From Escherichia coli (lineage in GTDB: Bacteria; Pseudomonadota; Gammaproteobacteria; Enterobacterales; Enterobacteriaceae): a stretch of DNA of 64,000 nt. The notes beneath the pieces are model-generated. The model had not been told where the DNA came from. It was given only the letters and a program-made list of their open reading frames with translations, and did not search any database. Every line of letters starts with the position of its first letter. The stretch's first letter is position 1. Positions 22,522-22,633 of this stretch are shown here, in pieces. Both the position numbers and the translations under genes were made by a program. Location: the NCBI RefSeq assembly GCF_044324785.1, contig NZ_CP172127.1; one strand, 5' to 3'.

Positions 22522-22524
22522 GAT

Positions 22525-22550
22525 GCCCTGGCGTCGGATGACGCCAGGGC
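22525..22550. other. Perfect 11-bp inverted repeat immediately after cas3 stop
   Basis: gccctggcgtc ggat gacgccagggc; no U-tract, so not a canonical intrinsic terminator. Confidence 0.6.
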
Positions 22551-22633
22551 TTATCCCCGCTGACGCGGGGAACAGGAGCATAAAATGATATACGTGTATC
22601 ACTAACTTGGTTAATCCCTTAGACAGGGAACTG
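22548..22633 (-). CRISPR. Vestigial repeat-spacer-repeat unit (minus strand) in the cas3-casA intergenic region
   Basis: Reverse complement of 22548-22576 is ccTGTTCCCCGCGTCAGCGGGGATAAgcc; second, more decayed copy (ggttaatccc...gggaac) begins about 22608, i.e. a 32-nt spacer-sized interval after the first. Confidence 0.55.

Follow-up and report, generated by a model that had tools for sequence, protein, structure and literature searches.

The 64,000-nucleotide stretch of Escherichia coli DNA considered here (hereafter the window; RefSeq assembly GCF_044324785.1, contig NZ_CP172127.1) contains a complete type I-E CRISPR-Cas locus, comprising cas3, casA-E, cas1 and cas2 plus arrays of 29-nt repeats and 32-nt spacers, and the short repeat-spacer-repeat unit located on the minus strand between cas3 and casA is very probably a CreR-type (Cas-regulating RNA) mini-CRISPR gene of this system. 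A first-pass annotation prepared from the sequence alone had described the same unit as decayed, and proposed that it could mark a recombination junction, a remnant array, or a Cas6e-binding hairpin with a regulatory role. The combination of exact array geometry, a self-match flanked by a protospacer-adjacent motif (PAM), and the co-variation of that match across related loci led to the rejection of the decayed remnant and upheld the regulatory reading.

As first described, the unit is antisense to cas3 and lies upstream of casA, in the region where a cas promoter would be expected. It extends from position 22636 to 22547 of the minus strand, and consists successively of an upstream degenerate repeat (psiR1), a spacer-like sequence (psiS) and a downstream repeat-like sequence (psiR2), the 29/32/29 geometry of which is that of the arrays. 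The near-complete repeat previously noticed on the opposite strand corresponds to psiR2, in which the part expected to form the 3' handle and Cas6e hairpin agrees with the array repeat at 19 of 21 positions and can fold into a hairpin of 7 bp. This sequence was the sole match to the repeat pattern outside the arrays (with the degenerate repeats at 3232-3370 counted as an array), is on the opposite strand to them, and has a chance expectation of 0.00; its loop variant GCGTCAGC is also present in the terminal repeats of the window's own arrays. The eroded second copy that had been placed some 32 nt further on was recovered as psiR1, the intervening gap being exactly 32 nt. Both ends of the repeat, GTTCCC and GGGATTAACC, are retained in it on either side of a hairpin of 5 bp, and the predicted 5' handle (ATTAACCA as compared with ATAAACCG) is equal at 6 of 8 positions, AT-N-AACC-(A/G) being kept at the handle position in relatives. 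The case for psiR1 was built not on plain alignment but on its exact spacing, its conservation in relatives, and the two-part motif GTTCCC-N5-12-GGGATNAACC, which was picked after seeing the sequence and occurs nowhere else outside the arrays (expectation 0.00). Retention is asymmetric, the handle part being kept in the upstream copy and the 3' hairpin part in the downstream copy, and the same asymmetry was found in relatives. Folding of the minus-strand RNA, as the first-pass annotation had suggested, predicted three hairpins including those of psiR2 and psiR1, with a z-score of -6.1 for the whole relative to shuffled sequences. No match was returned by Rfam for 800 bases around the site at E-values up to 1; to our knowledge that database holds no CreR family.

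The principal evidence for a regulatory function is a match between psiS and its own intergenic region. Positions 1-17 of psiS are identical to the plus strand at 22686-22702 (AGTTATTGATATACGTA) at 15 of 17 positions, the exceptions being positions 6 and 12. The matching site is located 79 bp from psiS in the same cas3-casA region, directly after AAG, which is the canonical type I-E PAM. Because the only mismatches are those at positions 6 and 12, and every sixth guide base is known to be flipped out by Cascade and left unpaired (established; also PMC10120712), the predicted pairing can be regarded as effectively perfect over 17 nt, after which it ends. Comparison with both strands of the 64 kb confirmed that this was the best non-self match, the runner-up being a run of 8 nt with no PAM, and none of 20,000 shuffled versions of psiS matched the intergenic region as well. 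As a negative control, five ordinary array spacers starting AGTTAGT were examined in the same manner, and these had no comparable self-match, the best runs being 5-7. A pattern scan of metagenomes returned six loci, one of them identical to the window (from human gut) and the other five ordinary arrays, from which these control spacers were taken. Phage mimics of psiS (Cracr) gave no match in 50,697 phage records, a search of IMG/VR for the handle plus seed gave no match, and the exact psiS string was not found in the searchable literature, which did not cover the supplementary tables of two key papers.

By extending the comparison to other type I-E loci (numbered here with the prefix L), gathered by a CasA scan of species-representative genomes plus contig look-ups, 18 further loci were obtained in which an antisense mini-array lies directly after cas3 (in L047 it is divergent from cas3). 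Among these were a rare Salmonella enterica variant (L046), E. coli L054, L055 and L056, a Logan sequencing-run contig (L050), about ten Gilliamella loci, and others from K. spallanzanii, Atlantibacter, Cronobacter and Chimaeribacter. The psiS sequence differs between loci, and in most of them its best non-self match in the whole locus is the cas3-casA region of that same locus, the PAM being AAG in 13 of the comparison loci and ATG in 4. A cross-test of 17 loci gave a mean matching run of 12.5 for psiS against its own intergenic region, as compared with 5.0 against those of other loci. In none of the 19 loci does psiS mismatch its target at positions 1-5, 7 or 8, whereas a mismatch is present at position 6 in 14 of 19, and likewise at position 12 in 14 of 19, about the 75% that bases under no constraint would give; this contrast is partly built in, since the scoring used to choose targets ignored the sixth positions, although their freedom to vary is not. 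The true relatives of the window element are those of S. enterica L046 (psiS AGTTAGTAGCAA..., target AAG followed by AGTTAATAGCAA...) and a few E. coli lineages, L054 and L055, with psiS AGTTAGTGAGATAC[T/A]AAAATT and target ATG followed by AGTTA[T/A]TGAGAAAC[T/A]AA.... The last two differ from each other at psiS position 15 (T as against A), and their targets carry the same change. The published features of the S. enterica ATCC 51960 CreR were recovered in L047, a result which validated the procedure, and the mini-array of E. coli K-12 was also recovered.

Degenerate mini-CRISPRs of this design were named creR by Liu et al. in 2023 (bioRxiv 10.1101/2023.03.10.532045), who demonstrated for the type I-E creR of S. 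enterica ATCC 51960 that P_casA is repressed 8.6-fold by E. coli Cascade in a manner dependent on the seed, that this repression is relieved by excess CRISPR RNA (crRNA) or by AcrIE8, and that the element acts as a stand-alone CreR. Shmakov et al. in 2023 (PMC10120712) reported that about 19% of type I-E loci in bacteria, E. coli included, have mini-arrays between cas3 and cas8 which are transcribed in the direction opposite to cas3 and have AAG-flanked partial targets near Pcas, and a later preprint describes prophages which copy Salmonella CreRs to silence the system. Effector- and seed-dependent repression of a cas promoter has been demonstrated only for the S. enterica ATCC 51960 and FDAARGOS_717 elements. 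The window element is, by sequence and by cas variant, different from the published tested one. Like that of the window, the ATCC 51960 CreR (L047) is a degenerate mini-CRISPR upstream of casA in which the handle is kept upstream and the 3' hairpin downstream, psiS matches, over its PAM-proximal portion, a site upstream of casA that is flanked by AAG, and there is no intact toxin gene. By way of contrast, it belongs to another cas variant, with a CasA 39% identical to that of the window and a divergent cas3; its psiS is unrelated, starts TAG (TAGATACAGTCTTAA...) and is 22 nt rather than 32 nt long; its match consists of 15 consecutive positions rather than 17 with mismatches at 6 and 12; its target is 141 bp from casA rather than 249-265 bp; and no GC hairpin follows the unit. 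Of the two, it is also the one that has been tested experimentally.

The mini-array of E. coli K-12 (L043; 'K12creA' in Table S1 of Liu et al.; PMC10120712) is likewise antisense and placed directly after the cas3 stop, with a spacer of about 32 nt and an AAG-flanked partial target in an AT-rich region upstream of casA. Unlike the window element, it has a perfect handle (ATAAACCG) upstream, a degraded downstream copy that overlaps the cas3 stop, no GC palindrome, and an unrelated psiS (TTATTGGTC...), and it accompanies another cas variant. Two further analogies may be drawn. The CreA RNAs of CreTA and CrePA in types I-B and I-F (Li et al. 2021, as cited by Liu et al.; bioRxiv 10.1101/2024.01.05.574328) resemble the reading adopted here in that a partly complementary crRNA-like RNA makes the effector a transcriptional repressor, but there the repressed gene encodes a toxin and the cell depends on the CRISPR effector, whereas the window is without an intact toxin candidate. 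For Cas9, autoregulation by tracr-L (Workman et al. 2021, as cited by Liu et al.) also amounts to autorepression, through a natural guide that has a short stretch in common with its own cas promoter; that system is a class 2 type II one in which the guide is derived from the trans-activating CRISPR RNA (tracrRNA), with no repeat-spacer-repeat unit. Taken together, sequence features place the window element as a distinct member of the CreR, or regulatory mini-array, class.

On this basis, the minus strand would be transcribed from the AT-rich intergenic region towards cas3, and Cas6e would cut the base of both repeat-like hairpins to release a 61-nt crRNA-like RNA composed of the handle AUUAACCA, psiS and a 3' hairpin. 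Loaded with this RNA, Cascade would bind the AAG-flanked site at 22683-22702, at which the 17 PAM-proximal positions, save 6 and 12, can pair. In type I-E systems an R-loop that is only partial neither locks nor recruits Cas3; it follows that Cascade on such an R-loop would sit as a repressor rather than trigger cleavage. As the site is upstream of casA and beside the best promoter candidate, the expected outcome is autorepression of the Cascade operon through lower casA transcription. In related elements such repression eases once Cascade is diverted by ordinary crRNAs or by anti-CRISPR proteins (bioRxiv 10.1101/2023.03.10.532045). Processing by Cas6e, Cascade loading, cleavage-free repression and relief by competitors are assumed here from the literature on those related elements, and transcription of the mini-array at this locus is one that we infer. 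That part of the first-pass annotation which envisaged a Cas6e-binding regulatory hairpin was accordingly only half right: a regulatory role stands, but the hairpins are probably processing signals, and the working part would be the guide psiS instead of a hairpin.

Table 1. Positions of the mini-array, its predicted target and associated features in the window, and of the small open reading frame (ORF) found in related loci.
Feature	Position	Strand	Remarks
psiR1, upstream degenerate repeat	22608..22636	-	CTTCAGTTCCCTGTCTAAGGGATTAACCA; 5-bp hairpin
psiS, spacer-like sequence	22576..22607	-	AGTTAGTGATACACGTATATCATTTTATGCTC; 32 nt, same as array spacer length
psiR2, downstream repeat-like sequence	22547..22575	-	CTGTTCCCCGCGTCAGCGGGGATAAGCCC; 25/29 positions equal to array repeat GTGTTCCCCGCGCCAGCGGGGATAAACCG
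GC-rich palindrome, 11 bp, 4-nt loop	22525..22550	.	GCCCTGGCGTC-GGAT-GACGCCAGGGC; between cas3 stop and mini-array end
Predicted CreR target	22683..22717	+	PAM AAG 22683-22685; protospacer 22686-22717
Candidate mini-array promoter	22654..22677	-	TTTTCT-17-TATTTT; score 4.5; transcript expected from around 22642, some 6 nt ahead of psiR1; low confidence
Candidate casA promoter	22722..22750	+	TTGAAA-17-TACTTT; top of position-weight scan; unmapped guess
cas3	19822..22521	+	899 codons; ORF list; named cas3 in record of 99%-identical E. coli strain N3
cas3 stop codon	22519-22521	+	TGA; 3 nt before GC hairpin
casA	22951..24513	+	ORF; start codon as in strain N3 annotation; Pfam PF09481 on homologues
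cas7/casC	25061..26116	+	in-frame TAA at codon 83 (25307-25309), from translation
CRISPR arrays	28812-29512 and 2200-2778		repeat GTGTTCCCCGCGCCAGCGGGGATAAACCG
Small ORF, basic peptide MEEK..KRLFCRLMIRLGNKLSVSFQLSVR	L008 2513-2611; L056 1012-1110; L050 1350-1448; L011 6845-6943; L051 ~1347-1457; L025 6860-6934		in related loci

Several observations weigh against a working CreR at this locus, and the case is at its weakest in the promoter geometry. The distance to the casA start codon is 265 bp from the beginning of the target and 249 bp from the end of its paired part, in an intergenic region of 25% GC in which a standard promoter scan found no more promoter-like sites than in shuffled sequence. 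The only promoter-like site given by that scan is some 130 bp downstream of the target, and direct promoter occlusion therefore remains only a candidate route. The position-weight scan, which only ranks guesses, placed at the top a candidate the -35 hexamer of which begins 5 nt after the protospacer (strain N3 has G for A at 22726, within this hexamer), and its candidate for the mini-array itself is weak; binding at the target might equally act on a divergent creR promoter. To the scoring bias at the sixth positions may be added the unremarkable local alignment of psiR1 to the repeat, which is equalled in score by 529 of 6,168 genomic windows and is not significant by itself. The cutting by Cas6e of a 5-bp upstream hairpin, and the loading of Cascade with a handle equal at 6 of 8 positions, are steps that are predicted only. 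In addition, cas7 is truncated in this genome. Matches to the cas3 and casA ends on either side of the region were found in 2,447 complete E. coli genomes, of which about 2,400 (O157:H7 and O104:H4 included) are without the whole module, which is therefore dispensable. A separate block at 22905-22942 has the form TGATGGACAACC-N-ACCA-N-GGATGGTCTT...GCGAG and immediately precedes the casA ribosome-binding site. It is conserved throughout the relatives, among them those E. coli with a 97-bp cas3-casA region and, in part (GCCA-N-GGATGG), Klebsiella, Atlantibacter and Salmonella; it may be an element of the 5' untranslated region of casA.

The cas genes downstream of casA follow in the order casB, cas7, cas5, cas6e, cas1 and cas2 as judged from the ORFs, and the RefSeq record of strain N3 names cas3, casA, casB and cas7e. 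In the rpoS region the window is 99.7% identical to N3 and 97.7% identical to ordinary E. coli. Codon 83 of cas7, a stop in the window, is GAA in N3 and a Glu or Asp codon in four related loci; the TAA is either a nonsense mutation peculiar to this strain or an error of sequencing. A genuine stop would abolish Cascade, and hence both immunity and CreR action in this genome. Given this premature stop, Cascade is probably not made here and the CreR circuit is probably idle. The RNA gene itself is intact, as is its target, and both are identical to the N3 versions.

That the unit is a non-functional remnant, whether part of a former array or a fragment in inverted orientation, left to decay neutrally between cas3 and casA, is improbable. 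Such a history would be in keeping with the badly eroded upstream copy, whose own alignment to the repeat is rivalled by that of many random windows, with the absence of the element from most E. coli of this cas variant, and with the broken cas7. Neutral decay leaves unexplained, by way of contrast, both the exact 32-nt spacing and the division of handle and hairpin between the two copies, and it offers no account of a PAM-flanked seed match in the same region that was equalled in none of the 20,000 shuffles. It was on these grounds, exact array geometry, complementary retention of handle and hairpin, and a PAM-flanked match of the insert, that the label 'decayed' was withdrawn. Nor is a remnant array easily reconciled with the 18 other loci, in which differing inserts match their own locus, or with the paired change in L054 and L055.

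The perfect 11-bp palindrome reported after the cas3 stop is present at 22525-22550, and folds as an 11-bp hairpin on either strand (z-scores of -6.1 and -4.8 relative to shuffled sequences). When each sequence was folded separately, the arms shifting register between loci, a GC hairpin of 7-11 bp was found to abut the cas3 stop in all seven enterobacterial units (the window, L046, L008, L011, L012, L050 and L051), with a short loop of 2-6 nt, usually 4, and a stem of differing sequence. Its probable role, at the place where the transcription units of cas3 and creR converge, is that of a terminator or insulator, and as an insulator it would keep the two transcripts apart. The alternative proposal, that the hairpins are only a cas3 terminator or stabilisers of the 3' end of its mRNA and that the likeness to a repeat is a by-product of a stable GC hairpin, is very unlikely to be correct. 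It draws on the presence of two strong plus-strand hairpins directly after the cas3 stop, on the recurrence of a GC hairpin of varying sequence at this place in the seven enterobacterial loci, and on the Gilliamella downstream repeat hairpin, behind which the minus strand has a U-run. On the plus strand neither hairpin leads into a T-run, nor does the 22525-22550 hairpin on either strand, and a terminator scan was empty; the proposal would also give no account of the second copy of the repeat, of the 32-nt spacing or of the match between psiS and its target. A terminator role for 22525-22550 is moreover compatible with the CreR explanation, of which it already forms part.

The Gilliamella mini-arrays (L014-L018, L021-L023, L036 and L039) have a psiS of only about 21 nt and a downstream hairpin, GTTCCCCAC...GTGGGG, that is unlike the repeat of their own arrays (GTTCCCTGTA...TACAGGG). 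With the U-run placed directly after it on the minus strand, this hairpin looks like a Cas6 hairpin and intrinsic terminator combined.

In a number of relatives a small ORF of 32-36 codons, coding for a basic peptide, is located downstream of the CreR target and 52-62 nt upstream of casA (as measured in four loci). A profile search of 1.84 billion representative proteins returned only five clusters, none of them functionally named (one is a 'hypothetical protein'), and NCBIfam and PADLOC gave no match. The product may be a leader peptide, a regulator or a toxin of the CreT/CreP kind. Within the window, the interval 22703-22950 contains no intact counterpart; a remnant hinted at by MAFFT was unsupported by local alignment and was dropped.

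The ORF bears on the proposal that the mini-array is the antitoxin half (CreA) of a CreTA/CrePA-like module, with as its main job the repression of a toxin gene between the target and casA. Modules of this kind are published for types I-B and I-F, and the ORF is conserved between target and casA in L008, L011, L050, L051, L056 and, in part, L025; pairwise differences among L008, L011, L050 and L056 fall mostly at third codon positions, and Shine-Dalgarno-like sequences are present upstream in those four. Such a role for the window element is nevertheless hardly to be expected, given that it has no intact counterpart ORF and no remnant made clear by local alignment, that the small protein matches no known family and its toxicity is putative, and that the published Salmonella type I-E element is a stand-alone CreR.

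A rather speculative extension of the CreR explanation, which we consider unlikely though worth recording, is that of an ancestral three-part module, consisting of a creR antitoxin, its target and a gene for a 32-residue basic peptide just upstream of casA, as the type I-E counterpart of CreTA/CrePA. The peptide (K-R-L-F-C-R-L-M-x-R-L-G-x-K-L-x-V-S-F-Q-L-S) would then be a toxin or regulator that is induced once Cascade has been put out of action. If this were true, the window would represent the state after loss of the peptide gene, namely a stand-alone CreR, and most E. coli the state after loss of the whole module.

The distribution of the module among genomes is uneven, the element being kept in relatives and absent from most E. 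coli of the variant and from common Salmonella. The full 430-bp intergenic region was found in 2 of 5,426 complete E. coli genomes (N3 and 06-00048), and diverged relatives of it in 14 more. The cas3-casA gap is 97 bp in most E. coli of the variant, with no hairpin, mini-array or target; 11 bp in the common Salmonella CasA variants (L044 and L045), which have no mini-array; and similarly short in Citrobacter youngae (L007). Alignment of the 97-bp region with the long form for any leftover of the target gave ambiguous short blocks only, and no remnant is claimed. As the unit occurs in distant genera, its loss from most E. coli is the simpler reading, and the regulatory module has apparently been lost repeatedly. 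A recombination junction between different cas cassettes, which might be suggested by so polymorphic a region (430 bp here, as against 97 bp in E. coli of the O157 type and 11 bp in Citrobacter and common Salmonella), can be dismissed as exceedingly improbable, since the cas3 and casA flanks are collinear and about 90% identical between long and short forms and therefore indicate insertion or deletion instead of a cassette boundary, and a scar would not co-vary with a target site.

Some other features of the window may be recorded. Three degenerate repeats (equal to the repeat at 20, 25 and 24 of 29 positions) with spacers of 20 nt and 32 nt are present at 3232-3370, 450 bp downstream of the 2200-2778 array and on the same strand, followed by a GC hairpin at about 3384-3408, an arrangement that resembles the small second array known in E. 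coli. Ordinary short or orphan arrays such as this likewise have repeat-like copies at array spacing, but, unlike the mini-array, the 3232-3370 repeats share the strand of the neighbouring array, and their spacers gave no self-match beyond chance within the window. A Hok/Gef family toxin gene annotated by RefSeq in N3 (L002 76-228) lies about 200 bp upstream of cas3, a position that corresponds to approximately 19475-19627 of the window. A 26-nt sequence, GG[A/T]CTTGTA[A/G]GCCTGATAAGACGCGT, with two copies (11910-11935 and 18413-18438), resembles the repetitive extragenic palindromic (REP) elements of E. coli and is unrelated to the mini-array.

RefSeq has nothing annotated at the site of the mini-array, and it is for this reason that genome annotation can be said currently to miss such RNA genes; a reading of raw sequence can find a CreR gene, and elements of this kind are not to be dismissed as decayed arrays. 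The present element adds a sequence-distinct E. coli and Salmonella variant to the class described in 2023, for which the 19-locus comparison, with six named genera and one sequencing-run contig, provides purely computational support in the form of own-locus matching and of pairing that is strict save at every sixth base, the footprint expected of Cascade binding. The pattern of presence and absence of the module among these bacteria constitutes a natural experiment on the value of autorepression to the cell.

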